DNA of 38,572 bases from a virus: IMG/VR virus record IMGVR_UViG_3300028835_001054. One strand, 5' to 3'. The notes under the pieces are model-generated. The model made no database searches, was not told the DNA's origin, and saw only the letters and a program-made list of their open reading frames with translations. A program made the translations under genes and the position numbers. Positions 6,369 to 23,571 of the stretch are shown here, piece after piece. Each line of letters begins with the position of its first letter. Within the stretch, counting starts at the first letter, position 1.

Positions 6369-6392
6369 TTTCGATCACCTCTATTTTTGCAA

Positions 6393-6418: not shown

Positions 6419-6439
6419 AATTGTCATACCTGAGGTAAC

Positions 6440-8531: not shown

Positions 8532-8544
8532 AAGCAAATCTCCA

Positions 8545-8721
8545 TCAACTCTTTTTCTTAGCGTAATAGCGGGCAAGTTCCCTTTTTGCTCTGTTCAGTT
8601 CCTTGATCACTTTGTCCAGATCCTTGCTATCTCTAGTATGGAAATCTATCTTTACTACAGCAGTCCCGAAGTCAGTAAAGACCTGGCAATGATCAAATTT
8701 GACCATCTTTCTCACTGACAT
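8545..8721 (-). CDS. Hypothetical small protein (58 aa)
   Basis: ATG 8721 (MSVRKMVKFDH...) is preceded by GAGGAG 7 nt upstream. The track start at 8763 has no RBS. Confidence 0.4.
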   Translation of the reverse strand: MSVRKMVKFDHCQVFTDFGTAVVKIDFHTRDSKDLDKVIKELNRAKRELARYYAKKKS

Positions 8722-8765
8722 AATTACTCTCCTCATGCAGCGACCGCTGGCCTCCAGCCACATAT

Positions 8766-9548
8766 TCAGTTTGGATGCGCTGGAATCAAGCCACGCGCCT
8801 CGGCTATTGAGAATACTTTGCCATCATTCGGGGCGCATATATCGCAAGCTGCCTCACCGCGTGTGAGCCATTCAGCATCGATCTCCGCCGCCTCATAAGC
8901 CTGTAGCGTTCCTTCAGAAACGGCGCGGGAAGTCTCCGTCCTGGCGATCATCACCGCTCGTCTTCGATGCAATCTCTTCTCATAGCTCCCAACGCTCCGA
9001 TCTATTTGTGCTCTCGAATAATGCGGCTTCTGGATCAGTAATCGCTCCTCATAATTGGCAACAGAGATAACTTGCTTTTCTGTCAATCCCACCAGAGGCC
9101 TGATCCGCCTTCCAACTTGTGGCATACTCTTCCCCGCATTCACTCCATCGCGGATTGCCCACCTGAGCGCGGTCTTCGTCTCTTCAGTCACCTCGCGGAC
9201 CATATCGGCGGTGATCGTCTGAGCCAGTTCTACCGCCGCCGGGTTCAGCATATCGAATGAGAGCTTTATCCCTGCGATTCTATAGCCTTCAGTACCCGCA
9301 TCCGCTATGGCTCTCAGAACCGTCGGCTTGATGATGATCTGCCCCTCGCTCTCGATAGCCATCCAATCAGTCAATTCCATCACGATAGTCTCTGCCTGGT
9401 CTTTGCGGATCATATTGCTGTTAATCCCTTTGATGATCTCGTTTCTCGTAAACTCCAGCCATTTACGCACTGCTATCCTGACTTTCTTTTCGTGCTCTTT
9501 TTGCAGCCGGAGCATTCTGGCGTTGTAATTATCCCGTTTCAGAATCAT
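8766..9548 (-). CDS. Head morphogenesis protein, Mu F / SPP1 gp7-like
   Basis: Follows the portal gene. C-terminal ...ACDICAPNDGKVFSIAEARGLIPAHPN matches the CxxC...P.HPN end of the MuF-like family. The start is uncertain (ATG 9548 chosen; it overlaps the portal end by 20 nt). Confidence 0.65.
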   Translation of the reverse strand: MILKRDNYNARMLRLQKEHEKKVRIAVRKWLEFTRNEIIKGINSNMIRKDQAETIVMELTDWMAIESEGQIIIKPTVLRAIADAGTEGYRIAGIKLSFDMLNPAAVELAQTITADMVREVTEETKTALRWAIRDGVNAGKSMPQVGRRIRPLVGLTEKQVISVANYEERLLIQKPHYSRAQIDRSVGSYEKRLHRRRAVMIARTETSRAVSEGTLQAYEAAEIDAEWLTRGEAACDICAPNDGKVFSIAEARGLIPAHPN

Positions 9549-10953
9549 CTTCCCCAATCTCCACAAGAGTCGCATCCATGTAATAACTATATCCGGTAGC
9601 GTAGGGCGTCTCTCCACGCTTTTCTCTATACTGGTTCGGAGTCATAGTTCCGGTTCGTATCCTGCCCATATCCTCTTCATGCTCGATTACCTCGTCCCTG
9701 ATATCCAGATTCGTAAAAGACACCTCATAAGAAGGGCAGTTAAGCCCGATAGCGAAGATATTATCAGACCATAGCTCCTCTATATCCCGCTGTAATGGCT
9801 CCACAACGCCGTTGATGTAGTTTGTTGTAAGCTCCGCCGCGACGTTCCCAGCGAGGCTCCCCTGGCGGATGGGCAGCCCAAGTCTGTATGGCGGCATCTT
9901 ATATGCAACGAGAATATCCTGGTCGATCAGCGTTCTCAGAATTCTGAATGAGCCTTCTCTGATTTCTACGGCGAGCTTATCAACTTTGATCTCGCAACCT
10001 TCAGGCGTATCTACTACCAGCGTAGAGTGAGCTTTATCAGCGCCTGTCAGAGAGTTCATATAATCTTTGACAATCGTGATGGAATCCGTATCATCCTCTC
10101 CCGTACCATCTTCCCATTCGCCTGTCAGAGTTACGAGACAAGCTGGGATCCCGCAATTAGTGAAAAACGAGAGATTATAGTCGCGTATTCCCAGCCCTGT
10201 GAGAATATCTCCAGTAGTAGGAAGCATGTTCGGCACGCCATACCAGCGCGATTTTGGATAGTAGGTATGGTAGAAAATCAACTCATTAGCGCGCTGTTTG
10301 ATGTTCAGTCCTGGCGACTCTTCGCCTGTTTTCGGGTCCAGGATTAGTGGGAGCCCTTTTCTCTCCTCTGCTTCAGGATCGTCTCCCATAGCGAATCGTG
10401 CGAACCATGCTTTATTGACATCTTTTCTCTGACAGAACTTTTTGCCTCCCTTATGCACCCAGAGATCCCCTGTCGGCATGTGGCGAACTTCTGAGACCTC
10501 GTTATCCATACGTCTGACAACCTGGAGAGCGGAGTTTCCCGTAACGCCCCAATCCATAATGAATGCCTTGTTTATCCGCCGGAAGGACATATCAGGATTA
10601 GGCCGTTTTATAAAAGCCATGATCTTATCGTATTCAGCTTGATTCTCTGCCATATCCTCACGCGGCTTGACTGTCCAGCCCAATCCAGCGACATCAGTAG
10701 CGATCTGATCCACGCAAGCCCAGACCATCACATTGCTTTCCCACATGAAATAAAAAGATGACGCAGGATAGGGATGTTTCGCCAGATTATCAGAGCCGAT
10801 CCATTTTTCCTCATCAGGCAACTGCTGGTCGGCTTTCGTGATCTCCGCTTTCTCCAGGATGTTGTAAGGGAAAACGCCGCCAGATCGGGTCACAACAAAC
10901 GCCCTGGCCTTCTTCGGCTTGACTGGCTCCTGTATTTGCTTCCTGAATTTCAC
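9529..10953 (-). CDS. Portal protein (474 aa)
   Basis: GTG start in a GTGA overlap with the terL stop, with GGGGAGGG RBS. The size and its position immediately after the large terminase fit a portal, as does the region FYFMWESNVMVWACVDQIATDVAGLGW. Confidence 0.8.
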   Translation of the reverse strand: MKFRKQIQEPVKPKKARAFVVTRSGGVFPYNILEKAEITKADQQLPDEEKWIGSDNLAKHPYPASSFYFMWESNVMVWACVDQIATDVAGLGWTVKPREDMAENQAEYDKIMAFIKRPNPDMSFRRINKAFIMDWGVTGNSALQVVRRMDNEVSEVRHMPTGDLWVHKGGKKFCQRKDVNKAWFARFAMGDDPEAEERKGLPLILDPKTGEESPGLNIKQRANELIFYHTYYPKSRWYGVPNMLPTTGDILTGLGIRDYNLSFFTNCGIPACLVTLTGEWEDGTGEDDTDSITIVKDYMNSLTGADKAHSTLVVDTPEGCEIKVDKLAVEIREGSFRILRTLIDQDILVAYKMPPYRLGLPIRQGSLAGNVAAELTTNYINGVVEPLQRDIEELWSDNIFAIGLNCPSYEVSFTNLDIRDEVIEHEEDMGRIRTGTMTPNQYREKRGETPYATGYSYYMDATLVEIGEDDSETG

Positions 10954-12236
10954 GCTGCTGCCCTCCCCTTGCGTCTGCTCTTCATAGTGTGATGCGCGTA
11001 TCGCTCCGCATCCTGGCCGTGATCGTCTTCGTGAGCCATATCCTCTTTCGCCTTGTTCATCCAGACATACCCGGGCTTCTCAGTAATCGTGGAATATGGT
11101 TTCTTATTGATTACAAGCCGCTGATCTTTTTCCACCAGCGCATCAGCCATATAGAAGATTTTATCCTGCTCGTATTTATCATATACCGTTTGCTGGCCAG
11201 ACATCCGGTCTTTTTTCGCGTGTATCGTCTTGATCTTATGCTCCCTAAGAGTCGCCATATCCTCAGCATCGTGATCGCAGATTGCGCGTGGCGCCATGGA
11301 GTCCTCTTTGCAGTATTTCAGAATCAGCGGAGCATGTGTGTTGACCGTTCTGTGAGTGTGATAGATCTCTCGATAGAGATACCATACATCAGATGGAGAG
11401 ATAGCCCACCACTGACAATTGAAAGGATTGTCGAATCCGAAATCTATCGAAAGTACGCGCTTCCAATCTTTCGGAATTGCTATGTGTCCGGTACGCGCCT
11501 GAAACTGTGGCCACGTCAGAACGTGCTTTGCAGGATCGAATGGATATACGAGTCCTTCTGCAGCTACCCATAATCCATCTTTGTACCTGAGCTTGTATAT
11601 GCCTGTCAATTGATCCAGCCGTTCCATGTAGCTCCTGGGCAACAGGTGTCTCAGTATGGTTCCTTTGATCGCCTCATATCCATCCCACTTTTCGACAAGG
11701 AAGCGCTTGTTTAGCCAATGAGCAGGCACGTCAGGATTGCTGATAAGCATACACTGATGAAAAGGGACGCCGGGCAAACGCAGGCACCTGGAGATTTTCT
11801 CCTCAAAATCATTTTCAGAGACCTCACGCGCTTCCTCAACCACAACAAAACCATATTCGCGGGAGGCCAGCTTGTTGACATCATTAGCGGAATCCAGCCC
11901 GACGCCCCAGAACTCCGTGCCATTATGCAGCCTTCTGAATAATTCCGTGTCGTTCTTATCTTTCACAAGCCCCGGATGAAGGACTTTATCAATAAACCAT
12001 TTCCAGAGAGTGGCCTTCAGATCGACGCGCTTCCTTCTCACAAGAGCGATACAGTTCCCCGGATACTTCCATCCTACAGCCAGAGCTTTCGCAGCCCCGA
12101 TATGCGTCTTGCCAGTTCCCCATGCCCCCCAGAAAAACAAATTGAGCGCGATGTTCCTGAGCGCCTGTAGCTGGGCTCTGGATTCCGGCTTGAAATCGAT
12201 CACTTTGTCTTGTGGCTGGATCACGGTTGTAGTCAT
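10950..12236 (-). CDS. terL: Terminase large subunit (428 aa)
   Basis: Walker A GAWGTGKTH, Walker B GFVVVEEA, and a C-terminal RNase H-like nuclease segment LSIDFGFDNPF...DHDAED...HEDDHGQDAERY. Confidence 0.9.
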   Translation of the reverse strand: MTTTVIQPQDKVIDFKPESRAQLQALRNIALNLFFWGAWGTGKTHIGAAKALAVGWKYPGNCIALVRRKRVDLKATLWKWFIDKVLHPGLVKDKNDTELFRRLHNGTEFWGVGLDSANDVNKLASREYGFVVVEEAREVSENDFEEKISRCLRLPGVPFHQCMLISNPDVPAHWLNKRFLVEKWDGYEAIKGTILRHLLPRSYMERLDQLTGIYKLRYKDGLWVAAEGLVYPFDPAKHVLTWPQFQARTGHIAIPKDWKRVLSIDFGFDNPFNCQWWAISPSDVWYLYREIYHTHRTVNTHAPLILKYCKEDSMAPRAICDHDAEDMATLREHKIKTIHAKKDRMSGQQTVYDKYEQDKIFYMADALVEKDQRLVINKKPYSTITEKPGYVWMNKAKEDMAHEDDHGQDAERYAHHTMKSRRKGRAAA

Positions 12237-12239
12237 GAA

Positions 12240-12503
12240 TTATTTTTCCGATGCTTCCATGCTGGATTGAATTGACCACTCTATGAATTCCGCCGCCAAT
12301 TCAGCTTTAGATTTCAGCTTCCCAGGCGTGAGGTTGTCCTTGCTCACACACTGACATAGTAGATAGCGTTTCGTCACTACATCATAACCCTCATACCCGC
12401 GCCCGTAACATCGTTTACATTTCGGATCCGGTCGCTCTTGCAATTCGAGCCAGTTGCCGGATTCCATAGCTGCTTCCAATTTGCGGAATCTTTCAACTGT
12501 CAT
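12240..12503 (-). CDS. Small Cys-rich (zinc-ribbon-like) protein (87 aa)
   Basis: ATG 12503 is preceded by GAGGAG. CKRCYGRG...LLCQC cysteine pairs. Lies between terS and terL. Confidence 0.4.
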   Translation of the reverse strand: MTVERFRKLEAAMESGNWLELQERPDPKCKRCYGRGYEGYDVVTKRYLLCQCVSKDNLTPGKLKSKAELAAEFIEWSIQSSMEASEK

Positions 12504-12508
12504 GGTTG

Positions 12509-12925
12509 TCACTCCTCAGCATCTGGGAATGGATCATCACCCAGACCGACAAAATTGATAAATACGCGTCCTGGAGTATCGATCTCCAGCTTCATTTCCG
12601 GCTTCAATCCTGCGCGGTCCAGAATATCCCGCGCCGCTCCCAGCTTGACGGCCTCCGTTTTCGCGTTCAGCATCAGCTCCTGGAGAACTGGCAACGCATC
12701 CAGCGCAAGCGAGATCATCCGCGACCTGGACAGATCAAAGAGCTCCTGTTTCTTCTGTTCCCAATAGGCTTGCACTTTTGGGATTGTCAAAAGTCTGCTT
12801 GCCTTCGATGCTGCAATGTCATCATTCTTTGGCTTATAGCCAGCATCTTTGTATGCCTGCGTATACGTCTTACCTTCCAGGAGCCCATTGATGAAAAGTA
12901 TCTGACGGTTATTTATCTCCGGCAT
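12509..12925 (-). CDS. terS: Terminase small subunit (138 aa)
   Basis: MPEINNRQILFINGLLEGKTYTQAYKDAGYKPKNDDIAASKASRLLTIPKVQAYWEQ is the typical HTH N-terminus of Terminase_2-type small subunits. It lies upstream of terL. Confidence 0.75.
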   Translation of the reverse strand: MPEINNRQILFINGLLEGKTYTQAYKDAGYKPKNDDIAASKASRLLTIPKVQAYWEQKKQELFDLSRSRMISLALDALPVLQELMLNAKTEAVKLGAARDILDRAGLKPEMKLEIDTPGRVFINFVGLGDDPFPDAEE

Positions 12926-13298
12926 CCTTGATCGCCTCTCGAAATCGCTTAGCAAGTCGCATCCGTGATTTCTGAATCGTCATGGATCCTGCGGCATATC
13001 CGACGGTTTTGATCAGTTCTGCGATGGTATTGATCTGGAGAGTGGTATGGATTCGGGGATTGTCAGGATGGAGCTCGATTTCTGAAAGCGGTAGTATCTC
13101 CGTATCCAGTTTTGCAACGAGTTCCTCGGTGGATTGGGCTGGCCTGCTAAATTTCGGGTTTGCCATTTTAACACCAGGATTGTTAAAACGGCTGGAAGGC
13201 AAAACAAACCCCGGTCGGGAAATACTTTGCCCTCCAACCGGGGTTTGTTTCAGCAAAGGATTCGGCAAGATAGGCTCAAGTATCTTGCTGTATCCCAT
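12909..13298 (-). CDS. ParB N-terminal-like domain protein (start uncertain: 13298 or ATG 13166)
   Basis: ILPLSEIELHPDNPRIHT..INTIAELIKTVGY resembles the ParB/Srx-fold box (HP.NPR). First gene downstream of the predicted promoter at 13325..13353. Confidence 0.4.
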   Translation of the reverse strand: MGYSKILEPILPNPLLKQTPVGGQSISRPGFVLPSSRFNNPGVKMANPKFSRPAQSTEELVAKLDTEILPLSEIELHPDNPRIHTTLQINTIAELIKTVGYAAGSMTIQKSRMRLAKRFREAIKDAGDK

Positions 13299-13324
13299 CG
13301 AAAAGATGTTACCATATCACTCCA

Positions 13325-13353
13325 ATTATACCAAGATACTGTGAATTGATCAA
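13325..13353 (-). promoter_or_regulatory. Sigma70-type promoter with extended -10 (candidate packaging/late operon promoter)
   Basis: Minus strand TTGATC-17 nt-TATAAT with TGG immediately upstream (TGGTATAAT). The same 9-mer occurs at the two switch promoters. Confidence 0.45.
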
Positions 13354-13612
13354 GGAATCTTTTTAACTTCTGTTAGTAATAGCCCCATAATGAAACTTAT
13401 GCAGACCAATCACGCCCGTAGATGCGCTATTTACGCGGGTTGGAATTTTGTGACATGGTTATGCCATGAAATGGTAGGATTTCTCTTTTTCCTGGCATGA
13501 TTCTATACAAATGGTTTGTATTTCTTGAACGATTCGGCATGAGGTAGGCAAGATGGCCTGCCGGTGTGATTACTTCTTGTTTAAGTTCTGGGACTTGATT
13601 CGATCTAATTTT

Positions 13613-13813
13613 TTATTTGTTGTGTTGATGAATCTGACCGTGCCCTGCGTTTCGTATGCAAATCATATTTTCCACCGCTTCATCCATATCGCTTTTGAGC
13701 GAGTAGCCAATCAATTCTTTCCCTTTCATTGCCAAATATACCGGCGCTGGATAATAAATCATCATAGCATCTTCCGGGATAGTATCCACCTCTATGATCT
13801 TTATTTCGATCAT
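13613..13813 (-). CDS. Hypothetical small protein (66 aa)
   Basis: ATG 13813 is preceded by GGAGGTG. Last gene of the early-left operon. Confidence 0.4.
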   Translation of the reverse strand: MIEIKIIEVDTIPEDAMMIYYPAPVYLAMKGKELIGYSLKSDMDEAVENMICIRNAGHGQIHQHNK

Positions 13814-13827
13814 TGCCGCACCTCCTT

Positions 13828-14196
13828 TTAGTATCTCCACATGATTCTCTGGCTTTTAGCTTGATCAGAATCAGCGTGAATGAAATTCTTTCCTACGCCG
13901 ATCCGCGTGAACCCAGCCCGAATTAGCCCAAATATAACAGCAAATCGCTCAGAACTCGACGCCACCCGAATATCAGCCGCTAATCCTACTTCGTGCGAGC
14001 TGGACTTCGATCCGCCGACTGCCGCGTTGTGCGCGTCACATCTGAAGCCGCTGTTGATGATAAACGGAATTCCTGCAATACTCCGAGCCATCTGGAGTTT
14101 GCGAATAAAGCCTATATACATCTCTATCTTACCGCAACAGGGACATCTGAACTCGTCCACCGAAAAATTCTCTGATAATCTTTCAGATACTCTCAT
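13828..14196 (-). CDS. Endolysin, peptidase M15-type (zinc D-Ala-D-Ala carboxypeptidase fold)
   Basis: FSVDEFRCPCCG, GFRCDAHNAAVGGSKSSSHEVGLAADI and FIHADSD give the H..D...H zinc ligand pattern of M15 phage lysins. ATG 14196 follows AAGGAG. Confidence 0.75.
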   Translation of the reverse strand: MRVSERLSENFSVDEFRCPCCGKIEMYIGFIRKLQMARSIAGIPFIINSGFRCDAHNAAVGGSKSSSHEVGLAADIRVASSSERFAVIFGLIRAGFTRIGVGKNFIHADSDQAKSQRIMWRY

Positions 14197-14232
14197 TAAG
14201 ATCACGCTCCTTTTGTGTGTTTTTAATCGAAA

Positions 14233-14433
14233 TCAAAATACCTTTTTAGGCTTTCCCAACTGCTCCGCTTGATGTATTTCAACGTCAATCAGACGGCAGT
14301 GGATGTTATTATGTCCTGCCCGGCCGCAATATGAGCAAACCTTCGAAGCGCGCGCTATCTTGTCAAATTTCGCTTCCGTGATCTTTGCGCTTTTGCTTCT
14401 CTCAATACATCGAAGAGAGCAAAAGTCATTTCT
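14233..14433 (-). CDS. Startless 66-codon open frame in phase with the TGA of 14434..15114; contains a CCHC zinc knuckle (possible readthrough extension or decayed C-terminus)
   Basis: Codon-by-codon reading gives TGA(14434-36) RNDFCSLRCIERSKSAKITEAKFDKIARASKVCSYCGRAGHNNIHCRLIDVEIHQAEQLGKPKKVF TGA(14233-35). The frame contains no ATG/GTG/TTG. CX2CX4HX4C lies at 14296..14337. Confidence 0.4.
   Translation of the reverse strand, partial: RNDFCSLRCIERSKSAKITEAKFDKIARASKVCSYCGRAGHNNIHCRLIDVEIHQAEQLGKPKKVF
14391..14424 (+). repeat. 33/34-nt palindromic element, 9 nt downstream of the TGA at 14434
   Basis: TTTTGCTTCTCTCAATACATCGAAGAGAGCAAAA. Confidence 0.9.
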
Positions 14434-15114
14434 TCATAGCCCTTTCTGTTTCAGAAAGTTGTCTAGATCCCGGCGATCTTTTGTTTCCCGCTCTTCATGT
14501 GTTAGTTTAGCATCTTTATCAGGCCATTCGCCAGAGATCCGCTCAATACCTTTTTCAGATTCTATCAATTTGGAACAAGCCGCTATGTTGAAAGGTAGGC
14601 AATCAATTTCCCTGAGCGTAAACTTGACAATCGGAATGTCTATGATAATTCGATACCGAAATTCCCCGATGTATTGATATTTCTTCACCAGGTTAAGATT
14701 TGCTCTCTTCGATGCTTTGAAGGTAGTACCTGAAGTAAAATCTGAGATCTTGCGGATGCCATCGGAGATCCGCCTCAGGATCCAGTTATTGGCGCCCACG
14801 TTATAATCCAGAACCACTTCTTTTTCCCCCTGGAGCATATTGAACATGCCCCATCTTCGGCGCTTGCGATGTTTTTCCAGGACAGGACAATTAGCATAAG
14901 CGCAGTATCCGCCGGCATAGTTGACCCCGGCTGGTACGCCATCCGGCAGGAGCTTTCCCTTTCCAAATCTTCCCCTGGACGCAATGACTTTGATGTTATT
15001 TCTGAGAAAAAGTCTGCCAATTCCGCGCAGCTTTACCTCGAAAACTTTACCCCGGAGTTCGCTTACTAGCGGAGTGTTTCCCATCTTCCATTGATAATTC
15101 CATTTATTGCTCAT
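14434..15114 (-). CDS. Hypothetical protein (226 aa) carrying an in-frame long-variant repeat insertion
   Basis: ATG 15114 is preceded by AAGGGAG. No family recognised. Residues DFTSGTTFKASKRAN are encoded by the repeat at 14698..14742. Confidence 0.45.
   Translation of the reverse strand: MSNKWNYQWKMGNTPLVSELRGKVFEVKLRGIGRLFLRNNIKVIASRGRFGKGKLLPDGVPAGVNYAGGYCAYANCPVLEKHRKRRRWGMFNMLQGEKEVVLDYNVGANNWILRRISDGIRKISDFTSGTTFKASKRANLNLVKKYQYIGEFRYRIIIDIPIVKFTLREIDCLPFNIAACSKLIESEKGIERISGEWPDKDAKLTHEERETKDRRDLDNFLKQKGL
14698..14741 (-). repeat. Long (44-nt) variant of the palindromic element, inside ORF 14434..15114
   Basis: Plus strand ATTTGCTCTCTTCGATGCTTTGAAGGTAGTACCTGAAGTAAAAT. Same architecture as 25372..25416 and 35875..35918. 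Confidence 0.9.
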
Positions 15115-15133
15115 AATTTATTTACCGCTCCCT

Positions 15134-15379
15134 TCAGAAAGGCCAGCCCAGCGCGCGCAAGCCGTCTGCCTGTTGCTCGTCTTTCGCTTCCGTCATTAGC
15201 AAGCCCCAGCGCGCACTGAAAAGTTCCGCCGCTAACATTCCCAGTGATGGTGTTATATGGAATGTCTTGCCCCATGTTTCGCCCCTGCGTTTCTTTAACA
15301 TATCATAAACATCGTCTATAGATTGCTCCATCATTCTCCGCGTGATTTCTCTGATTTCTTTCCAATCTTCCGGCTCCAT
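15134..15379 (-). CDS. Hypothetical small protein (81 aa)
   Basis: ATG 15379 (MEPEDWKEI...) is preceded by AAGGAGG. Confidence 0.45.
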   Translation of the reverse strand: MEPEDWKEIREITRRMMEQSIDDVYDMLKKRRGETWGKTFHITPSLGMLAAELFSARWGLLMTEAKDEQQADGLRALGWPF

Positions 15380-15453
15380 AGTTTGCCTCCTTTTCCCTCG
15401 CTTGAAAACGCTTCCCGTAAATAAAAACCGAAGCGTTTCCAAACAGTATTGGA

Positions 15454-15597
15454 TTATCTAGCCAGGTCGATCAAGTTTGCACACATTTTGAGAGCGACAC
15501 CTATCGCTAGAATGATCCCCGCGTAGATTCCGATCAGAATCGAAGCTCGCGCTAGTCCCTGCTTTCTGGTAAGAAGTAAATTCTTTATCCTTTCCAT
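15454..15597 (-). CDS. Small single-TM protein (47 aa), not in the ORF track
   Basis: GAGGTGAAAACG-ATG gives MERIKNLLLTRKQGLARASILIGIYAGIILAIGVALKMCANLIDLAR-TAA. One hydrophobic helix. Confidence 0.45.
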   Translation of the reverse strand: MERIKNLLLTRKQGLARASILIGIYAGIILAIGVALKMCANLIDLAR

Positions 15598-15616
15598 CGT
15601 TTTCACCTCATCATGA

Positions 15617-15737
15617 TTATGCTTCTCTCAAGGCTTCGAAGAGAGCAAAATTAGCTTCTCTTGAGGCTTCGAAGAGAGCGAAATTTTCTTCTCTTGCCCC
15701 TGGCTTTTGCTTCTCTCTGAGCATCGAAGAGAGCAAA
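15617..15737 (+). repeat. Cluster of three full copies plus one partial copy of the palindromic element
   Basis: Copies at 15617..15650, 15651..15683 and 15705..15737; partial TTTTCTTCTCTTGCCCCTGGC at 15684..15704. Confidence 0.9.
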
Positions 15738-15935
15738 TCCGGCTGTCTCTGGAACCTTCCAGAGTCCAAAATCACTATACATCTGGCATCTGGTGATATA
15801 CAGTACTATAGCGACCTCTTCTGGATCAATCGCTGTGCATTGGTAAGCTGCTGAATCTTCACTACAGTTCGCCATCAGGTCGTTTGTAAGCTGGCGAATT
15901 TCTTTTGCTGTTGGGCTAGTCTGTTTGCTTCCCAT
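15651..15935 (-). CDS. Hypothetical protein (94 aa) whose last ~30 codons and stop codon are supplied by the repeat cluster
   Basis: ATG 15935 is preceded by GAGGAG. The C-terminus FALFDAQREAKARGKRRKFRSLRSLKRS* is a translation of the repeats in reverse orientation. Confidence 0.45.
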   Translation of the reverse strand: MGSKQTSPTAKEIRQLTNDLMANCSEDSAAYQCTAIDPEEVAIVLYITRCQMYSDFGLWKVPETAGFALFDAQREAKARGKRRKFRSLRSLKRS

Positions 15936-15945
15936 TTTACTCTCC

Positions 15946-16377
15946 TCACAGGTGATCGATTTGCGCTGCAGCTTCTTTGATCTCTGGGTTGCCAATAGCC
16001 ATCAAACGAAGTATGCCATAGATCGTCGTTCCTGAAATCTTGAGCCTGATACATTCTTTCGTGATCGCCTCAAGCCCGCGCTGTATCTCTTTCGCTTTGA
16101 GCCTCGCTATTTCCTCTGTAAGATTGCGGATGCCCGCCTCGAATGTTTCTGCCTCCTCTTTGTTTTTTTCTGCCAGGAGCATAGGCTTCCGCTTTTCTTC
16201 CTCCCTTGCCGACTTTTTGAGATCTTTCGCAACCTGGACTTTCCTCAGCAATTCCTTTTCCTTTTCAGGATCCAGATCCAGATCGCTGAGGATATTCTTG
16301 GTCTGCTTTACTGACCAATCCTCTCTGATGCAATCCTCAATTAGTTCGTTCACATATGTTTCAGTAAAACCGCCCAT
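15946..16377 (-). CDS. Hypothetical coiled-coil protein (143 aa)
   Basis: Charged Lys/Glu-rich central helix. No family recognised. Confidence 0.4.
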   Translation of the reverse strand: MGGFTETYVNELIEDCIREDWSVKQTKNILSDLDLDPEKEKELLRKVQVAKDLKKSAREEEKRKPMLLAEKNKEEAETFEAGIRNLTEEIARLKAKEIQRGLEAITKECIRLKISGTTIYGILRLMAIGNPEIKEAAAQIDHL

Positions 16378-16402
16378 GTTCTTTTTCCGCTCCTTTCTGG
16401 TT

Positions 16403-16693
16403 CTAAAAGACCTTTCGCGAAACAGCTATTCCGGACAACTCTCTGTCGTGATACGCTAATTCCCTTTTCTCCCTAAACCACATGGTCACTTTCTCATGGC
16501 AGTCGGCACACAGGACGACAAGATCGTAAAGGTCTTCATCACCGACATACTCATAGCTGTTATGATGCACATGCAGATTCTTCGTCTCTGCACACAGCGC
16601 GCACCTATATCCGAAACGCTCTAGTGTCGCATTCCTTGTCACGAGCCACGCGTCGGATTTCAGATATATATCGTTATACCATGTTCTGTCCAT
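16403..16693 (-). CDS. HNH-type endonuclease-like protein (96 aa)
   Basis: CALCAETKNLHVHHNSYEYVG....LVVLCADCHEKV gives CxxC...HH-N...CxxCH, the HNH/zinc-finger pattern. Confidence 0.6.
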   Translation of the reverse strand: MDRTWYNDIYLKSDAWLVTRNATLERFGYRCALCAETKNLHVHHNSYEYVGDEDLYDLVVLCADCHEKVTMWFREKRELAYHDRELSGIAVSRKVF

Positions 16694-17470
16694 TTATTCA
16701 GGGTAGTCCTCTGTTATATACCCGTTTCTAATCCTGGACACTAGCGCACCGCCGGGATTCCTAAACGTGATTCCTTTCTCAAAGTCCTTTTTGATCTGTG
16801 CTATCTGCCGGAGAAGATACCGCGTTTCATATTTTGCCGCCAGTTCAGATCGCGCCGGCTCCTTTACGTGATGATAATCTAATTCCCTGCGCGCCTTCTC
16901 GAAATCAGCTTCCGATTTTTCCTCAGTTACCAAAAAACCATTACCACCATTTTTAGGACTTTTCTCAACCCCCTCTCCGGTAGTAACTATATTAATATTG
17001 GTATGGGTATGGTCCTCTCCTCTCTTCTCTTCTGATCTTAGGATGGTGCCCTCTACTGTGCCCTCTACTCGTCCTCTACTGTGCCCTCTACTGCTCCCTT
17101 TTTGTTCCAGTAAGCTATTTCCCCCAGTCCAGACGCCCTTATACAGCAACAGTGATTTATAGTTAATTTCGTACTTTGCGCAGGTGTTTTTACCAAAGTT
17201 TCCGGAGATAACTTTCAATAATGGCTTACCATCTATTCTGAACTTGCACAAATTAGCGCGCCTCCCGCGAACGGATTTCGGGGTATTTCCACCACCCGCC
17301 GCCATCGCCTGAAGGTTATTCAGATCAAATGGCATCTTAAATCCGCGCCTGTTGTGTTCCAGGATGATACCGATCAGAAACGTGAACGACTCTTCGCTCA
17401 GTTTGCATACCAGGCCATATTTGTCAATACCCAGCATTACATCAATCAACGTAAAAGGCCGATCAACCAT
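16694..17470 (-). CDS. Hypothetical protein (258 aa), possibly DNA-binding/replication-associated
   Basis: Sits in the replication/recombination module. Contains a 12-nt tandem repeat. The function is not recognised with confidence. Confidence 0.3.
   Translation of the reverse strand: MVDRPFTLIDVMLGIDKYGLVCKLSEESFTFLIGIILEHNRRGFKMPFDLNNLQAMAAGGGNTPKSVRGRRANLCKFRIDGKPLLKVISGNFGKNTCAKYEINYKSLLLYKGVWTGGNSLLEQKGSSRGHSRGRVEGTVEGTILRSEEKRGEDHTHTNINIVTTGEGVEKSPKNGGNGFLVTEEKSEADFEKARRELDYHHVKEPARSELAAKYETRYLLRQIAQIKKDFEKGITFRNPGGALVSRIRNGYITEDYPE
17046..17092. repeat. Tandem 12-nt repeat, four units (one unit is 11 nt)
   Basis: GTGCCCTCTACT GTGCCCTCTACT CGTCCTCTACT GTGCCCTCTACT. Encodes SRGHSRGRVEGTVEGT on the minus strand. 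Confidence 0.85.
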
Positions 17471-18105
17471 TAATCATCGCCCTTCCTGCCAGATACAGGC
17501 CATCTACCTTTATACGGTGTATCAATTATTTCCATCTCAAGCTGGTATTCCCTTAATATTTCATTCCCCCAAGCATCCCATCCATTTGTCTGCTCGCGAG
17601 CAAATAGTTCAATACGTGGTAGATCGCCAAAGAGATTCACAATGAGTCTGCGAAAGAGATCGGGCTTTTGAGAGTGTGCCAAGCGTTTATGAAATTGCAC
17701 ATTCATTATATCCTTTCTCAATCTCTGGGCTCCTTTTCCTCTTCGGCCTAGTAACAAAATCTCAGGATTGGAACGTGTATAGCGTCCCATACCCATAGCA
17801 GGGATACTCGCCTGTGTCAGTTTGATCCATGTGAAGGCAACTGTTTTATAATCAAAACCCCATGACTCAACAACTGATATACCCTCTTTCAGTTGCGGAT
17901 AAGTGACCCATAGAAAAAGAATAGAATCATCGGCCGCGACATCTTTGACAGGCAAATTACATATGGAATCCGTCCTCATGCAGGGATAATGCGCTTCCGC
18001 GCCTCCTCCATGACTATAGCTTTTGTCAGCATAGAACCACGGCGGATCAGCATAGATTATTTTATAATGTTTTAAAGGAAGTTCTAAAAGGTCATTATAA
18101 ACCAT
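17470..18105 (-). CDS. MT-A70-family N6-adenine DNA methyltransferase (211 aa)
   Basis: IIYADPPWFY (DPPW catalytic motif). ATG 18105 is preceded by AGGAGG 6 nt upstream. Confidence 0.8.
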   Translation of the reverse strand: MVYNDLLELPLKHYKIIYADPPWFYADKSYSHGGGAEAHYPCMRTDSICNLPVKDVAADDSILFLWVTYPQLKEGISVVESWGFDYKTVAFTWIKLTQASIPAMGMGRYTRSNPEILLLGRRGKGAQRLRKDIMNVQFHKRLAHSQKPDLFRRLIVNLFGDLPRIELFAREQTNGWDAWGNEILREYQLEMEIIDTPYKGRWPVSGRKGDD

Positions 18106-18274
18106 ACTTAGCCTCCTGGATCCGCTCCGACATAACGCCTCCATCATTAAAGCGGAGCCGAAGCCCCGCCCTGACAAAGTCTTTCTGCTCCGTCGCACAA
18201 GTTGGCTCCTGAGTGGAAAGTGTCCAGGACGGTGAGGTTATCACCATCCTGGATGGAGTAAAGCTCAGGAGCGC

Positions 18275-20245
18275 TTATTTCGGCGCATCGTTGAGGGCTT
18301 CTTGCTCCTCTTTCTGATTCTGGGTAGGTGCCAGATGTTTTGACAATTCCTGTTCGAGAGTTCTGAGTAGAAGTTCTGCCTCTGGCAGCTTCATCATGCC
18401 CATTCGCTTTGGCTTATATCCGATCACATCTTTAACCTTCACCCTGAAAGCAACCGATCCCAGCGTTTTATACTGCGGAAGGGACGTAGCGAGCGCGCGC
18501 AATCTCTTGAATTGCTCTTTGGTGATCTCCTGTTCTTCATCCGGTGGCTCCGTCTGTCCAGGAAGCACAGGATTGGGATTGTGATCGACTATATCCAGTT
18601 GCGGATTCTCTTCATCAGGTTTGGCATCCGGATCGAAATCTGGCAACCGTCGGATCCGGACAATAGCCTCTGCGTAATCATCCAGAGTCCATGAATCTGC
18701 TGGGGCTTTGTGTAGATTTTCGAGGATCCACGCGTCCCGCTTCTCTACGGTTCCGAATTTCTTGACGCATACCGTAAGTAGATCCTTTGTGAGGTTCCGC
18801 TCCTCTTTTTCCGCTGATTCGATTACAGCGTCAATCTCCGCACGGAGTTCTTGCGCTGTTTCCTCTGTGCCAGTTTTTACCGCATCTTTCACAGCGTCCT
18901 CAACAGGCGTGCCATCTTTCGTGACTGGCTCTGGAAATTCTGCCTGGATCAAGAGGATCGCTTTCTGGAATTGTTCCGCCATCCATTTCGAGAGATCAGT
19001 ATCATCAGGGAAGTGTTCCAGAATCCATACGTCGCGCTCCTGGATTCCAGCGAAACAGGTTGCACCTAATTCCATGAAAGTTGATCGGAGTGCCTCGAGC
19101 TCAGGATCGGAATCTTCGTCCTTTCCGGTATCCACAACATCGCCCAGGACTTTCAGAGCTTTTTGATAATCTTCCACTGTCCAGGCTCCGATAAGCTTTT
19201 CTGCAACCGTTTTGCAGAAAGCATCCCTGTCCTGGATTCCAGCGAATACCGTCGCTCCCAATTCAGCGAAAGCGGCTTTCAGTTGCTCGAGCTCAAGATC
19301 GAATCTTCCGCTCTTCCCTTTCGTTTCCTCTTCTGGCTCCTGTTTCGGTTTGTGCGCCTCTGCTCTCTTCGAAGCCTTGAGAGAAGCAAACGGCATTTTA
19401 TGGATGGCGCTGAAAGCCTTTGCATAATGCGGCGCTTTCCATTTTGTGACAGAAGCTTCGCCCGTGTTCTGGAGTTGCCAGGAGTGCCGATCATCTTCAT
19501 TTGCGAAGAGGTCCTTGATCATCCCAAAATATGATTCTCTGAGCGCTGTTAGATCCTCTCCGCTATCTACCGTCACCGATGCCACTTCAGGAATCTCCTG
19601 GGCAGGCTCCGATGCTTCCAGCGGCGGCTCATTATATGCCTGTAAAGCAGGATTCTCGAATCCGCCGCCGAGTTCCTCAGCGATATATGGTAGATGCTGA
19701 GTTTCCAGTCCCGCGTATCGGAGCGCTCGTGTTACAGCGCATTTTCTGAACATATCGCGCAACATTGTCTCCCAAAACCTGTTCGGCTTATTATCGCTTT
19801 TGCGCCGTTTGATACAATCCTCCAACCACGTTTCCCAGACGTGAGGTCTTTCTCTGTCCTTGATCGTCAAAGTGATTTTGCACACTTTGGGATCGTCAGG
19901 ATCGTCGAATTCATACTCAATATGCTCCAGCCCATTAGCGTATGCCACATCCAGATACTTTCTATAGCCCACTATCGTCTGACCAGGTTCGCCTGCGATC
20001 TTCATAAAGTATACCTCGCCCTTTAGCGGATCCAAATTCAGGGCGCGGCATTTTCCCATGAACCAGAAAATATCATCATCTGTGCCGCCTTTGCATATAT
20101 ATTTTCTCACAAGCTCCTTGTTGATCTGGATTGTCTCATAGCTGTATTGGAGCGGCGCTATCTCCGCGCCGGTTCCCTCTGTTGCTGGCTGTCTGGTTTC
20201 CGCATCCATCTTATCAAGTTCTGCCATGTCATTTTTCTGATTCAT
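18275..20245 (-). CDS. RecT/Redbeta-like single-strand annealing protein with a long repeat-containing C-terminal extension
   Basis: The N-terminal third (CRALNLDPLKGEVYFMKIAG..GQTIVGYRKYLDVAYANG...MFRKCAVTRALRYAG) fits the RecT/Bet pattern. The C-terminal ~400 aa hold four ~50-aa repeats. The start is ambiguous (ATG 20245 or 20227). Confidence 0.65.
   Translation of the reverse strand: MNQKNDMAELDKMDAETRQPATEGTGAEIAPLQYSYETIQINKELVRKYICKGGTDDDIFWFMGKCRALNLDPLKGEVYFMKIAGEPGQTIVGYRKYLDVAYANGLEHIEYEFDDPDDPKVCKITLTIKDRERPHVWETWLEDCIKRRKSDNKPNRFWETMLRDMFRKCAVTRALRYAGLETQHLPYIAEELGGGFENPALQAYNEPPLEASEPAQEIPEVASVTVDSGEDLTALRESYFGMIKDLFANEDDRHSWQLQNTGEASVTKWKAPHYAKAFSAIHKMPFASLKASKRAEAHKPKQEPEEETKGKSGRFDLELEQLKAAFAELGATVFAGIQDRDAFCKTVAEKLIGAWTVEDYQKALKVLGDVVDTGKDEDSDPELEALRSTFMELGATCFAGIQERDVWILEHFPDDTDLSKWMAEQFQKAILLIQAEFPEPVTKDGTPVEDAVKDAVKTGTEETAQELRAEIDAVIESAEKEERNLTKDLLTVCVKKFGTVEKRDAWILENLHKAPADSWTLDDYAEAIVRIRRLPDFDPDAKPDEENPQLDIVDHNPNPVLPGQTEPPDEEQEITKEQFKRLRALATSLPQYKTLGSVAFRVKVKDVIGYKPKRMGMMKLPEAELLLRTLEQELSKHLAPTQNQKEEQEALNDAPK
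19361..19390 (-). repeat. Palindromic element inserted in frame in the RecT-like gene
   Basis: Plus strand TGCTCTCTTCGAAGCCTTGAGAGAAGCAAA, read as FASLKASKRA between protein repeats 1 and 2. Confidence 0.9.
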
Positions 20246-20465
20246 TTTCTTTCTCACTTTCTTGAAGGAGCACCTCAGCGTTTTCAACGGCGTTGATGAA
20301 TTCATCCCGCTTTTGTTTCGCCATAGCGATCCAGTGTCTTGTTTCGGTCCTGAGAAAATGGAGATCTTCCGAATCCGTTCGCTGCCAATCCTGGCTGGTG
20401 AGCGCTTTCAGATAATCGATAACGCATCTCAGCGCGTGGACTTTTTGATCGTGTATGCTTCCCAT
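20229..20465 (-). CDS. Hypothetical small protein (78 aa)
   Basis: ATG 20465 is preceded by AGGGAG. Lies between the nuclease and annealase genes. Confidence 0.4.
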   Translation of the reverse strand: MGSIHDQKVHALRCVIDYLKALTSQDWQRTDSEDLHFLRTETRHWIAMAKQKRDEFINAVENAEVLLQESEKENESEK

Positions 20466-20476
20466 TAAGATACTCC

Positions 20477-21247
20477 CTATGGCTTGACTCTGCCGCCATT
20501 TTCCGCCTCGCACTCCTGCCAGTATCGACAATAGCGCTGAGAGCACAGGTTATTATTAACTCGGTTAGCGTACCAGATCTCCGCCTCGATACCTTTCGCT
20601 ACTCCGGATAGGAGAGTCAGAAAATACCGCTCTTCGGCTTCCGTCACCTCTACTGGAAAAGATAGAATCCTGGGAACCTTTCCCCGGACACCGTAATCTA
20701 TTCTAGCCTCCATATCTGGGCTCTGGAGCTTGCGGCGCATAGCGCTGGTGTAGCCGTAGGTCTGGAGCAAATGCGTATCACGCGGCCGATTCAGACCGCG
20801 CGCGGTGGTTTTGTTTTCGATAACGATCCCATCGTCGCTCACTAGATCCACTCTGCCTGTGAAAGGCCACGGCTTATTGCTGAAAGTCATGGTAAACATC
20901 TGCTCAACTTCCACTGGCTGAATCTTATATGCGATAACGCTTTGATACTCAGCCAGAAGCATGATCCCTGAATCTTTTTCGATTCCGCGATCCTCTCCCT
21001 GCCTGAGCTCTATCTCATGTTCGTCAAAGCCCGCGCTGAAAATGGCCAGGACATCATCCAGCGGAAGATCCCGATATGTGTCGCATTTCTGCAAATAATT
21101 GTGCTTTGTGGTATCGTGGAAAACCGTTCCTATGGCAAGTGCTATATTGGCAGGTTTCCAGAGTTCAAGGCAATATTGGCAGTAGTAGCGGTATGGGCAA
21201 ATCAGGAAGGTGGTTACTCGGCTGCTGGATAAACGTTTTACTTGCAT
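20477..21247 (-). CDS. PD-(D/E)XK Cas4/RecB-like exonuclease (256 aa)
   Basis: ATG 21247 is preceded by AGGAGG. N-terminal Cys (FLICPYRYYC), GRVDLV..IVIENKT (D...E.K core) and a C-terminal Cys cluster CSQRYCRYWQEC. Adjacent to the annealase. Confidence 0.65.
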   Translation of the reverse strand: MQVKRLSSSRVTTFLICPYRYYCQYCLELWKPANIALAIGTVFHDTTKHNYLQKCDTYRDLPLDDVLAIFSAGFDEHEIELRQGEDRGIEKDSGIMLLAEYQSVIAYKIQPVEVEQMFTMTFSNKPWPFTGRVDLVSDDGIVIENKTTARGLNRPRDTHLLQTYGYTSAMRRKLQSPDMEARIDYGVRGKVPRILSFPVEVTEAEERYFLTLLSGVAKGIEAEIWYANRVNNNLCSQRYCRYWQECEAENGGRVKP

Positions 21248-21285
21248 CTTATTGAGCCTCCTTTTGATCCTTTGCTGATTCTCCG

Positions 21286-21492
21286 TCAATCGAAGATTAT
21301 GATGTCCTTCAACTCCATCTTGAGAGCTGCCGCAGCCGCTTCGACTTTCTTTGTGTGGAATCCTCCATTTCTCCACCGGAAAAGCGTCCGCGCAGAAATA
21401 TCAACGCTTTTTTCATTGAGCAAATCCGCCAGACTTCCAACAGTAGACACGCCTTCGGTTTCCTCGATCATTCGATCTATGTTTACCCTCAT
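21286..21492 (-). CDS. Small HTH DNA-binding protein (68 aa)
   Basis: VSTVGSLADLLNEKSVDISARTLFRWRNG is HTH-like. RBS AGGTGGTGA. Confidence 0.45.
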   Translation of the reverse strand: MRVNIDRMIEETEGVSTVGSLADLLNEKSVDISARTLFRWRNGGFHTKKVEAAAAALKMELKDIIIFD

Positions 21493-21576
21493 TATCTTTC
21501 ACCACCTTTCGGTTGGAATCTAATGACTCAAACTAACACAAGCTAGTTAGAGAACTAGAGAAAAAAATATGATAAT

Positions 21577-21951
21577 TCATTCATCTCTCTTACGAAGTTG
21601 TGCTTTAAGAGACAATACCTCATGCTGTAGTTCTTGGCTCTGCTTGGTGAGCGCAAGTATAATCGTGTCTTTTCTTTCCCGGAGATCATTCAATTCTTCC
21701 CATATTTCCCTGGCCTGATCATCTGCCAGAACGGATACGCGCACTTTCAAGCACTTAGCGATCTTCTTGGCAAGATAGAGGCTGACGCTGGTTTTAGCCC
21801 GAAGGATTTTATATAAAGTATCCCTGTGTATCGCCTTCCCTGTCTCCTGGCTCAAGCGAACCATGTCAGGGACTTTCAGATCCTGGAGTTTCATCTCTCT
21901 CTTAACGTTTTCCGCGAATTCTACTTTGACATCCTCTCTCTCTTGATTCAT
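21577..21951 (-). CDS. Cro/XRE-like HTH regulator with C-terminal coiled coil (124 aa)
   Basis: First gene of the leftward operon, divergent from the repressor gene. PDMVRLSQETGKAIHRDTLYKILRAKTSVSLYLAKKIAKCLKV is an XRE-type HTH. RBS GGGAGG. Confidence 0.6.
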   Translation of the reverse strand: MNQEREDVKVEFAENVKREMKLQDLKVPDMVRLSQETGKAIHRDTLYKILRAKTSVSLYLAKKIAKCLKVRVSVLADDQAREIWEELNDLRERKDTIILALTKQSQELQHEVLSLKAQLRKRDE

Positions 21952-21995
21952 TTCTATATCCTCCCTTGATAGGGTTTATAACTCTATATCAGTTA

Positions 21996-22025
21996 ATTAT
22001 ACCATAGAGCGACACGATATGTCAA
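21996..22025 (-). promoter_or_regulatory. Leftward early promoter (near-consensus sigma70, extended -10)
   Basis: Minus strand TTGACA-18 nt-TATAAT with TGG upstream of the -10 (TGGTATAAT). About 45 nt upstream of the Cro-like start. Confidence 0.6.
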
Positions 22026-22085
22026 CCTAAAATAGGCTTTGATTATATCTAAAGCCTCTTTAACTAACAAAAGTGTCGATTTTAG

Positions 22086-22114
22086 TATACAAATATCTTG
22101 AAATCTGGTATAAT
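22086..22114 (+). promoter_or_regulatory. Rightward promoter for the repressor operon (extended -10)
   Basis: TATACA-17 nt-TATAAT preceded by TGG (TGGTATAAT). Overlapped by the inverted repeat CTGGTA-12 nt-TACCAG (22105..22128). Confidence 0.45.
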
Positions 22115-22205
22115 GAGATAATTACCAGTTATACGATCATTTATTTTTTTAAGCCGCCGACCAAGTTTGGCGGAGCAAATGCCAGAACAGATCAGGAGGT
22201 ATCGA

Positions 22206-22922: not shown

Positions 22923-22934
22923 AAAGGAGATGCT

Positions 22935-23432: not shown

Positions 23433-23460
23433 ATCTGTTCGTCAAATCGGCTCAAAATCA

Positions 23461-23548: not shown

Positions 23549-23571
23549 TTTTGGAGGCAAAGTCAATAATC

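Follow-up and report, generated by a model that had tools for sequence, protein, structure and literature searches.

A 33-nt palindromic repeat dispersed in a temperate phage genome and piled up at a gene end: a probable miniature selfish element

Introduction

Why does a phage gene end inside a cluster of short tandem repeats? The question is raised by a 38,572-nt stretch of viral DNA (IMG/VR record IMGVR_UViG_3300028835_001054), the whole of which we call the window. At positions 15618-15737 it holds an imperfect palindrome of 33 nt (TTTGCTTCTCTCAAGGCWTCGAAGAGAGCAAAA) three times in full and once truncated, always in one orientation. A first-pass annotation had seen here a hotspot of element amplification that remodelled the 3' end of a 94-aa gene. 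To say what the cluster is, one has to ask whether its copies belong there, where else they occur, and what they do to the genes that contain them.

Results

The phage and its genes

Bases 1-144 of the window are the same as bases 38429-38572, and the genome is therefore circularly assembled, with a length of 38,428 bp. It has a GC content of 48% and belongs to a temperate phage. Almost all genes are on the minus strand. The following could be named:

Cro-like HTH protein, PD-(D/E)XK exonuclease and RecT-like protein of 656 aa
MT-A70 methyltransferase and a small HNH endonuclease (16403-16693)
M15 endolysin
Small and large terminase, portal and Mu F-like head morphogenesis protein (PF04233)
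S78 protease, 390-aa virion structural (capsid-like) protein and tape measure
22167-22922, plus strand: CI-like repressor with an S24 peptidase domain
23572-24729, plus strand: replication initiator (Rep), with more than 160 homologues, some named RepB or carrying a Pfam RPA domain

No integrase, transposase or IS was found among the Pfam and PHROG matches of the phage's proteins, and there is no cas gene in the genome. GenBank phages contained no relative by DNA (megablast of 6 kb) or by capsid (tblastn of the capsid-like protein).

The array at 15.6 kb

The array and the two ORFs that adjoin it are made up as follows:

15618-15650, plus strand: copy C, nhmmer E 2.6e-13; canonical, with loop GGCTTCG; intergenic
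15651-15683, plus strand: copy B, nhmmer E 4.7e-11; diverged (CTCTTG, GCGAAA, TTAG)
15684-15696, plus strand: truncated copy, a 13-nt 5' fragment (TTTTCTTCTCTTG), followed by 8-9 unrelated bases (CCCCTGGC)
About 15705-15737, plus strand: copy A, nhmmer E 4.1e-09; loop of the GAGCATCG type
15651-15935, minus strand: 94-aa ORFan, ATG after a GGAGAG RBS; called by the public gene caller
15454-15597, minus strand: 47-aa single-TM ORF, RBS GAGGTGA at about 15604-15610

The nhmmer profile finds the three full copies, a reading of the sequence shows the truncated one, and TRF reports a period of 33 nt across 15616-15696. The cluster had been described as spacer-less. This is true of copies C and B and the truncated copy, but 8-9 nt lie between the truncated copy and copy A.

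Copy B and the truncated copy have the derived motif CTCTTG in common, where the other copies have CTCTC[A/G/T]. At least that part of the array therefore came from local duplication or slippage and not from separate insertions; local amplification, as first proposed, is in this sense demonstrated at the level of the DNA sequence. Copy C has a change of its own, A to T, which makes a TAA in the element's own phase, so that all three frames are closed ahead of the RBS of the 47-aa gene, whose ATG is 20 nt beyond copy C. This small ORF is indeed there with its RBS, but it is not previously uncalled, for the public gene caller has it.

Two assemblies, possibly of the same sample, reproduce the array: an ENA contig built at k=141 and the Logan contigs of SRR5211005 both match the phage genome at 100% identity across copies A and B, the truncated copy and most of copy C. 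From Logan there are contigs for 2748-5190, 5164-15649 and 15623-23701, which break only within canonical copies. Since the array is shorter than k=141 and the inner copies are each unique, an artefact of copy number is very unlikely, and the feared collapse on re-assembly was not seen in either pipeline. On record are 5 contigs that encode precisely this 94-aa product. Look-ups with the 94-aa, 143-aa and 47-aa proteins gave only identical contigs, and no population variants with other copy numbers.

How the 94-aa ORF ends

Residues 1-66 of the 94-aa ORF are unique and coding-like, whereas the repeats provide residues 67-94 and the stop codon. Codon usage in the first 66 codons scores 0.17 per codon, and the other frames score -0.29 and -0.44 (the mean for the phage's genes is 0.28 ± 0.12), and the 28-codon tail has no preferred frame and lacks coding-type codon usage. 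The claim that the C-terminus and the TAA of this gene derive from repeats is thus borne out.

On entering the array, the ORF translates copy A as FALFDAQREAK, the element's own phase. ARG follows, the truncated copy adds KRRK, and copy B, read with an offset of one base, contributes FRSLRSLKRS up to TAA 15653-15651, a stop created by a CAAA to CTAA change in that copy. Two phases are therefore used, as had been noted, but the shift had been attributed to the partial copy, and this does not hold. The 21-nt stretch 15684-15704 keeps the frame, the distance from the TTT of copy A (15737) to the TTT opening copy B (15683) being 54 nt. Copy B is one base off the element's phase because of a T to C change, by which its leading TTTTGC became TTTCGC.

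That an older 3' end was remodelled could not be upheld. In a set of 5.8 billion clustered proteins the 94-aa protein finds no match but itself. A complete HMMER scan against 1.84 billion representatives gave one weak match (P0124, E 3.6e-4), in which residues about 16-76 align to Y_Y_Y-like repeats around DxGLWxVPET; residues about 16-66 may form a real small domain. The corresponding slot of a sister phage (contig L041, see below) holds an unrelated 120-aa ORF and a 51-aa TM ORF. As the protein is an ORFan and the sister ORF is unrelated to it, homologues cannot reveal the ancestral stop, and the comparison that had been suggested for this purpose finds no usable homologue. A candidate for the old stop is TAA 15619-15617, which would be in frame after ..PETAG if 15620-15737 were removed. 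The order of stop, short gap and element recurs, as TAG-GA-element at 5161 and as TGA-GA-element on a second contig (L038, see below). Most likely the running of the 94-aa ORF into the array is a by-product, and so presumably is the 28-residue tail.

A dispersed family

The array was rightly taken for part of a dispersed repeat family, and it is the largest local cluster of the 33-nt element in the genome. An nhmmer search of the whole phage genome with a profile built from the copies detected 11 full copies and the 3 copies of a 42-nt variant; together with 1 truncated copy, read from the sequence, they occupy 10 loci and lie in both orientations. The full copies start at 2746, 2778, 5161, 14391, 15618, 15651, about 15706, 19359, 23668, 23701 and 32824. 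A search with a 29-mer core (up to 3 mismatches) gave 10 matches, against 0 expected from 100 shuffles. Outside the array the loci are:

2746-2810, plus strand: tandem pair, T-type then A-type, in the likely 5' untranslated region of a 53-aa gene
5161-5193, minus strand: single copy, intergenic, 2 nt past the stop of the 390-aa virion structural (capsid-like) gene
14391-14424, plus strand: single copy, intergenic, between the 216-aa gene and the endolysin gene
14698-14739, minus strand: variant B, 42 nt or 14 codons, in frame in the 216-aa ORF (FTSGTTFKASKRAN)
19359-19390, minus strand: single copy, in frame in the 656-aa RecT-like gene (FASLKASKRAE)
23668-23733, plus strand: tandem pair, in frame in the Rep gene (SSSLKASKRAK FASLKASKRAK)
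25373-25414, minus strand: variant B, intergenic, at an indel junction relative to the sister phage
32824-32857, minus strand: single copy, in frame near the C-terminus of a 152-aa ORF upstream of the tape measure gene (SASLEASKRAN)
35876-35917, plus strand: variant B, intergenic, about 20 nt upstream of the ATG of a 748-aa gene

The unit is 32-33 nt long. Its consensus, TTTGCTTCTCTCAAGGC[T/A]TCGAAGAGAGCAAAA, is an imperfect palindrome from end to end, with one bulge. Three apparent half copies proved to be the 42-nt variant B, in which TC is replaced by AGGTACTACCT. The copies are 84-100% identical. They differ in the loop and in the outermost bases, and the stem core (columns 4-14 and 22-28) is unchanged throughout 12 of 12 copies. 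In each of the tandem pairs 2746/2778 and 23668/23701 a GGCTTCG-type copy comes first and a GCATCG-type copy second. A consistent target-site duplication or target motif is missing from the flanks of 11 loci; the Rep site has an ambiguous 2-nt TC, and in some copies the flanking GA...TC merely extends the palindrome.

Coding geometry and placement

The unit is exactly 11 codons and the variant exactly 14, and the sequence is free of stops in five of its six frames. Read from TTT, the unit gives FASLKASKRAK in one orientation and FALFEALREAK in the other. This geometry, with copies in frame within several real genes elsewhere, is the main point that the first-pass annotation had missed.

Five loci lie within ORFs, those in RecT, Rep, the 152-aa ORF, the 216-aa ORF and the tail of the 94-aa ORF (copy A), and all five are in the same codon phase (phase 0), for which (1/3)^5 = 0.004. 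A single shared phase hints at selection on the peptide or at a mechanism linked to phase, since purely selfish insertion predicts none. In RecT the context is ..HKMP-FASLKASKRAE-AHKP... Tolerance of the element within protein linkers is explained by its length, a multiple of three, and by its being open in five of six frames.

Intergenic loci number 6 of 10, whereas only 9% of the DNA is non-coding (p = 8e-5). The 2746/2778 pair is counted among them because codon usage splits at ATG 2682, which has an RBS. A gene caller places a 123-aa ORF across the pair, but there is no coding-type usage upstream of ATG 2682, and the 53 codons after it score very high; the RBS is GAGGGTGA. The pair is most likely in the 5' untranslated region of this 53-aa gene. 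Copies at 5161, 15618 and 35876 and on L038 occupy regular spots, just after a stop or just before an RBS, which would also fit a cis-acting RNA role. In all, the element survives only where it does little harm, either in short intercistronic gaps or in frame in variable linkers.

An empty site in a sister phage

Two contigs of a sister phage, L041 and L042, have the same gene order, with 68-91% nucleotide identity in the syntenic blocks. There is no copy of the element in L041 (17.9 kb) or in L042, nor in 145 kb of DNA from more distant relatives found via TerL, RecT and Rep; the TerL relatives (L005-L012) and the RecT relative (L013) contain no analogous repeat either. L041 has no other dispersed repeat that could replace the element, and it retains the 22-nt iterons upstream of rep.

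The Rep gene is the most informative site. Rep has 385 aa here and 363 aa in its closest homologue (P0005, on L041/L042), which is 86% identical in the alignment. A single 22-residue gap falls precisely at the two element peptides in all nine aligned homologues, P0005 included, and the peptide is absent from the 120 Rep homologues listed. At the DNA level the site reads ..CTCCCCAA|TCCGTTCC.. in L041 and ..CTCCCGAA[66 nt]TCCACCCC.. in the phage, the sole difference being one gap of 66 nt. This precise empty site, the one clean case, establishes by sequence comparison that the element is added DNA. Both RecT homologues that were available cease to resemble the phage protein after ..MP, where a variable, low-complexity linker begins, and opposite the element peptide they have a gap.

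The copy at 25373 lies exactly between two blocks of homology; in its place L041 carries 196 nt that include a 68-aa ORF. Next to the copy, the native sequence (TTTTCTCAGG in L041, TTTGCTCTGG in the phage) resembles the end of the element, which hints at microhomology. A block at 13.8-16.2 kb is non-homologous between the two phages, and it holds three of the ten loci. The small HNH endonuclease is missing from the aligned part of the sister phage. The RecT/exonuclease, too, is absent from that part of the copy-free phage or has a different form there.

Occurrence elsewhere

DNA patterns were scanned against IMG/VR, JGI metagenomes and GTDB. The scan of JGI metagenome contigs gave one further copy, on the 1.1-kb contig Ga0114925_10287328 (L038), which is the only known carrier outside the phage. 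This copy is 100% identical to that at 23701 and lies 1-2 nt after the stop of a 152-aa ORF, directly ahead of the GGAGG of the next ORF. L038 and the phage have nothing else in common at the DNA or translated level, and the ORFs of L038 have no Pfam or PHROG match. Judged from these comparisons, the element is present at full identity in an otherwise unrelated genome. Ga0114925 was a source of virus contigs in a study of Asgard archaeal genomes from deep-sea sediment (10.1101/2021.07.29.453957), and we take it as a marine-sediment sample because it is named there.

Three patterns gave 0 matches in IMG/VR, and blastn of the array gave nothing in GenBank phages or PLSDB plasmids. In GTDB an exact 26-mer was not found, and an 18-base pattern gave 24 singletons with unrelated flanks, a count at chance level. 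The GTDB scan covered 185,579 species-representative genomes and required an exact match to 18 bases, and the host of the phage may be unsampled there; an origin of the element in a host genome is possible.

Structure and signals

Predicted hairpin energies for the two orientations are -10.4 and -8.8 kcal/mol (z of -1.5 and -0.7 relative to shuffles), and the whole array folds no better than shuffles. The stem is AT/GA-rich and the tail A-rich. No pair has changed on both sides, though the low variation weakens this test of covariation, and substitutions at the ends of the element break pairs. The array has no match to a sigma-70-type promoter or an intrinsic terminator and no U-tract, and an Rfam scan of the full window gave no match.

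Discussion

Likeness to known repeats

Which known element does this repeat resemble? The Rickettsia palindromic elements (RPEs) are an established case of palindromic insertions in frame within protein genes (PMC10969869). Like them, our element is a dispersed palindrome that often lies in frame in unrelated genes, to which it adds a conserved peptide, while other copies are intergenic; RPEs, too, are deemed selfish DNA (PMC10969869). The frame-keeping insertions that are absent from homologues, 66 nt in Rep and the gap in RecT, are of the RPE kind. RPEs differ in being about 100-150 bp long, in forming several families and in residing in Rickettsia chromosomes, whereas the element is 33 or 42 nt long, belongs to a phage and forms head-to-tail arrays. 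The element has no sequence relationship to RPEs, and neither Rfam nor BLAST finds similarity to anything known.

REP elements and BIMEs, which are mobilized by RAYT proteins, and hairpin ends of the IS200/IS605 type are imperfect palindromes of 20-40 nt with a bulge, mostly extragenic and often clustered, and a 32-33-nt imperfect palindrome with one bulge in 15 copies is of this form. Both lack terminal inverted repeats of their own and target-site duplications. The element, however, starts with TTTGC and not with a GT[AG]G head, has no RAYT/TnpA gene nearby, forms direct rather than inverted clusters and has copies within ORFs. REP elements reach a high copy number in the chromosome of their host; the 185,579 species-representative genomes, in which the host of the phage may be unsampled, hold no true match to our element. 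In its working the element is like the RPEs, and in its physical form it resembles REP elements.

Other likenesses are partial. MITEs, and MPME1/2 in mycobacteriophages, are small non-autonomous insertions that some members of a phage cluster have and their close relatives lack, and they are recognized by the same logic of the empty site. They are 100-500 bp long, with terminal inverted repeats, usually target duplications, and a recognizable parent IS. None of these is seen here; the whole unit is one palindrome, and a consistent target-site duplication is lacking. PeSL cassettes of T4-type phages are repeated stem-loops at gene boundaries and at indel junctions of hyperplastic regions (PMC2839356, PMC4122927). 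The copy at 25373 is at such a junction, and three loci are in the variable 13.8-16.2 kb block. PeSLs, however, lie strictly between genes and pair an early promoter with a terminator-like stem-loop, whereas the element carries no such signals and is translated within genes. Finally, Cluster O mycobacteriophages have dispersed 17-bp palindromes, mostly in short intergenic gaps and some in the ends of ORFs (PMC4351075), and they share with our phage the many copies of a small dyad-symmetric motif across the genome (PMC4351075). Those palindromes are kept in all five related genomes and are presumed to be regulatory; our element is absent from L041/L042 and from the 145 kb of relatives' DNA.

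A terminator or PeSL cassette was rejected as an identity for the array, which has no GC-rich stem with a U-tract and no promoter match. So was a CRISPR repeat, as the tandem copies have no spacers, no such array is found in the GTDB representatives, and the phage has no cas gene. Because the defining features tested for REP/RAYT, MITE, PeSL, terminator and CRISPR repeat fail, we file the element in no family.

A selfish repeat or a functional site?

We think it probable that a miniature selfish palindrome of the REP/RPE kind, itself non-autonomous, spread recently in one temperate phage lineage and that the array is a place where its copies piled up. Readings in which the repeat has a function, as RNA or as peptide, together command a minor part of our belief.

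The better of these holds that the copies are cis-acting sites, either intercistronic RNA hairpins that serve mRNA processing, stability or coupling, or palindromes bound by a regulator of the phage or host, after the manner of the Cluster O palindromes or of stoperator-type sites, with the array as a strong version. The preponderance of intergenic loci (6 of 10) and the position of several copies right after a stop or 20-35 nt before a start, as also on L038, are what such sites would show. So are the invariant stem core in 12 of 12 copies and a tandem period of 33 nt, about three helical turns, and phage palindromes with a presumed regulatory role have a precedent (PMC4351075). We nevertheless consider this reading unlikely. 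In the sister phage, whose gene order is the same and whose repressor and Rep are closely related, there is neither a copy nor a substitute repeat. Five loci are in ORFs and are translated. The hairpin is no stabler than shuffles and is accompanied by no compensatory change, U-tract, promoter or terminator match. The invariant core is equally expected under recent spread.

Alternatively, the repeat could be a protein module, an 11-residue peptide (a basic linker, a DNA/RNA contact, or a cleavage or targeting signal) copied between genes, of which the intergenic copies have decayed. The single phase of the five in-ORF loci speaks for it, as do the lengths of 33 and 42 nt, both multiples of three, and the soluble, helix- or linker-like character of the peptides. 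But copies in unrelated genes are 90-100% identical in DNA, with no synonymous drift; both orientations occur and give unrelated peptides; the majority of loci are non-coding; the segment is dispensable in the 120 Rep homologues listed; and the 94-aa tail reads one copy out of phase. We regard this origin as improbable.

It is very improbable that the element serves the phage as a decoy for CRISPR repeats of the host, as an RNA anti-CRISPR or solitary unit would, or is another repeat derived from the host. Phage-borne solitary CRISPR repeats (RNA anti-CRISPRs) have a similar length, partial dyad symmetry and a repeat-repeat arrangement, and the element, at 32-33 nt with partial dyad symmetry and tandem copies without spacers, resembles them; yet the 18-base scan of the 185,579 species-representative genomes gave chance singletons only, Rfam has no match, copies lie in ORFs and in both orientations relative to transcription, and the palindrome runs end to end with no unpaired 3' handle. 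Hardly any credence is due to a wrong copy number at 15.6 kb from mis-assembled short repeats, for although the breaks of the Logan contigs (k=31) in canonical copies show that the repeats interfere with assembly, the ENA contig was built with k=141, which exceeds the length of the 120-nt array, copies A, B and the truncated one are each unlike all others, two pipelines agree, and the exact 94-aa product is on 5 contigs.

How the array may have formed

If the array is a pile-up of a selfish repeat, copies would have landed at or just ahead of the stop of a gene of about 66 aa. A partial duplication or deletion would then have left the truncated copy, and the T to C change at the start of copy B would have put that copy one base off the element's own phase. 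Reading would thereafter run on for 28 extra codons, to the TAA provided by a point change in copy B. The three modest RNA hairpins ahead of the RBS of the 47-aa gene could have an incidental effect on translation or mRNA stability.

We infer mobility of the element from its distribution, because no transposase, target-site duplication or conserved target motif was found. One candidate mobilizer is a hairpin-specific enzyme of the host, of the RAYT or IS200/IS605-TnpA type. Another is the small HNH endonuclease, which is missing from the aligned part of the sister phage. A candidate route is insertion by microhomology or template switching, which the phage's RecT/exonuclease might aid.

More tentatively, one may suppose an ultra-small palindrome proofed for translation, with one favored phase that yields a harmless linker of Ala, Ser and Lys, which actively moves between unrelated sediment viruses, inserts without inactivating genes and marks or creates junctions of cassette swaps, perhaps mobilized by the phage through its HNH endonuclease or its RecT/exonuclease. 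This bolder proposal we hold to be possible but somewhat doubtful.

What the element means

Repeats of this kind break short-k assemblies and mislead gene callers, as the 123-aa call over the 2746 pair and the 28-codon tail of the 94-aa ORF illustrate. The pair of phages, one with 15 copies and the other with none, is a ready system for learning what mobilizes REP-like hairpins and what they cost. If the selfish reading is true, the phage offers a miniature case of selfish DNA colonizing a gene-dense viral genome. A stop-free length that is a multiple of three would let the element sit in the genes for Rep, RecT and tail assembly without destroying them, and the element would also lengthen or create the ends of ORFs, that of the 94-aa gene being an example. 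Should it prove to be a mobile, translation-proofed palindrome, it would be the smallest in-frame selfish element known and the phage counterpart of the RPEs.

Genome Form and Possible Replication Origin

The first 144 nt of the window recur exactly at its end (1-144 = 38429-38572), and the record is a genome of 38,428 bp assembled as a circle. The same genome is represented by an ENA contig of 38,569 bp, which is equivalent to an overlap of 141 nt. A candidate origin feature is as follows:

23455-23551: four direct repeats, ATCCGCACTATTGAGTACAGT, each about 22 nt, just upstream of the replication initiator (Rep) gene

The repeats are kept in the sister phage (contig L041, 9884-9981). They look like the iterons of an origin that are bound by Rep, and are candidate Rep-binding sites. 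Since no integrase was found in the phage, it may persist as a plasmid-like prophage. The sister phage additionally carries three copies of a 20-nt palindrome, TGGCGGAAAATCCGCCAAGT, adjoining its Phage_rep_O-like gene (L041 4427-4500). These palindromes, absent from the window, may represent a second origin or an operator in L041.

Gene Blocks, RecT-like Protein and Inverted Repeats

The region 13833-16190, compared with L041 2860-3914, is a hyperplastic block: it holds the endolysin, a 216-aa ORF, an 81-aa ORF, the 47-aa TM ORF and the 94-aa ORF whose tail is read from the element array, whereas in the sister phage a 120-aa ORF and a 51-aa TM ORF are the sole occupants. In the sister phage, the part that aligns lacks the genes of 16403-18105 (HNH endonuclease, a 258-aa protein and an MT-A70 methylase) and instead carries a Phage_rep_O-like gene and an N6_N4 methylase. 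Three other features were noted:

18275-20245, - strand: RecT-like protein, 656 aa
25316-25372: inverted repeat GGCGGCTCC..GGAGCCGCC, GC-rich and accompanied by a T-run, separating convergent + and - strand gene blocks
15400-15440, - strand: 11-bp inverted repeat GAAACGCTTC..GAAGCGTTTC, in the gap separating the 47-aa gene from the one after it

The length of the RecT-like protein is unusual. C-terminal to its RecT domain, a module of about 60-100 aa (..LR..F......DR..W.L.......W....Y..A...I...P) occurs as three to four internal repeats, and both homologues found have these modules as well. The GC-rich repeat, kept in the sister phage (L041 11794-11849), is probably a bidirectional terminator. 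The 11-bp repeat has no U-tract and falls outside the 33-nt element family; the gene that follows it starts at ATG 15379 with the RBS AAGGAGG.

Reading Frames at Element Copies

32489-32860, - strand: 152-aa ORF and a subsequent -1 frame, upstream of the tape measure gene
2521-2892, - strand: public gene call of 123 aa with a TTG start, spanning the 2746/2778 pair of tandem element copies

The -1 frame has 93 codons and reaches the tape measure start. Directly after its last stop lies the heptamer A-AAC-CCT (about 32811-32805), with GAGGT about 10 nt upstream and an element copy (32824-32857) immediately 5′. The arrangement looks like a programmed -1 frameshift of the G/GT type, and is a candidate for one.

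In the public call, codon usage and the GAGGGTGA RBS favor a start at ATG 2682, and point to a coiled-coil-like protein of 53 aa as the likely true product. The 123-aa call is an instance of a gene caller led astray by a stop-free repeat.
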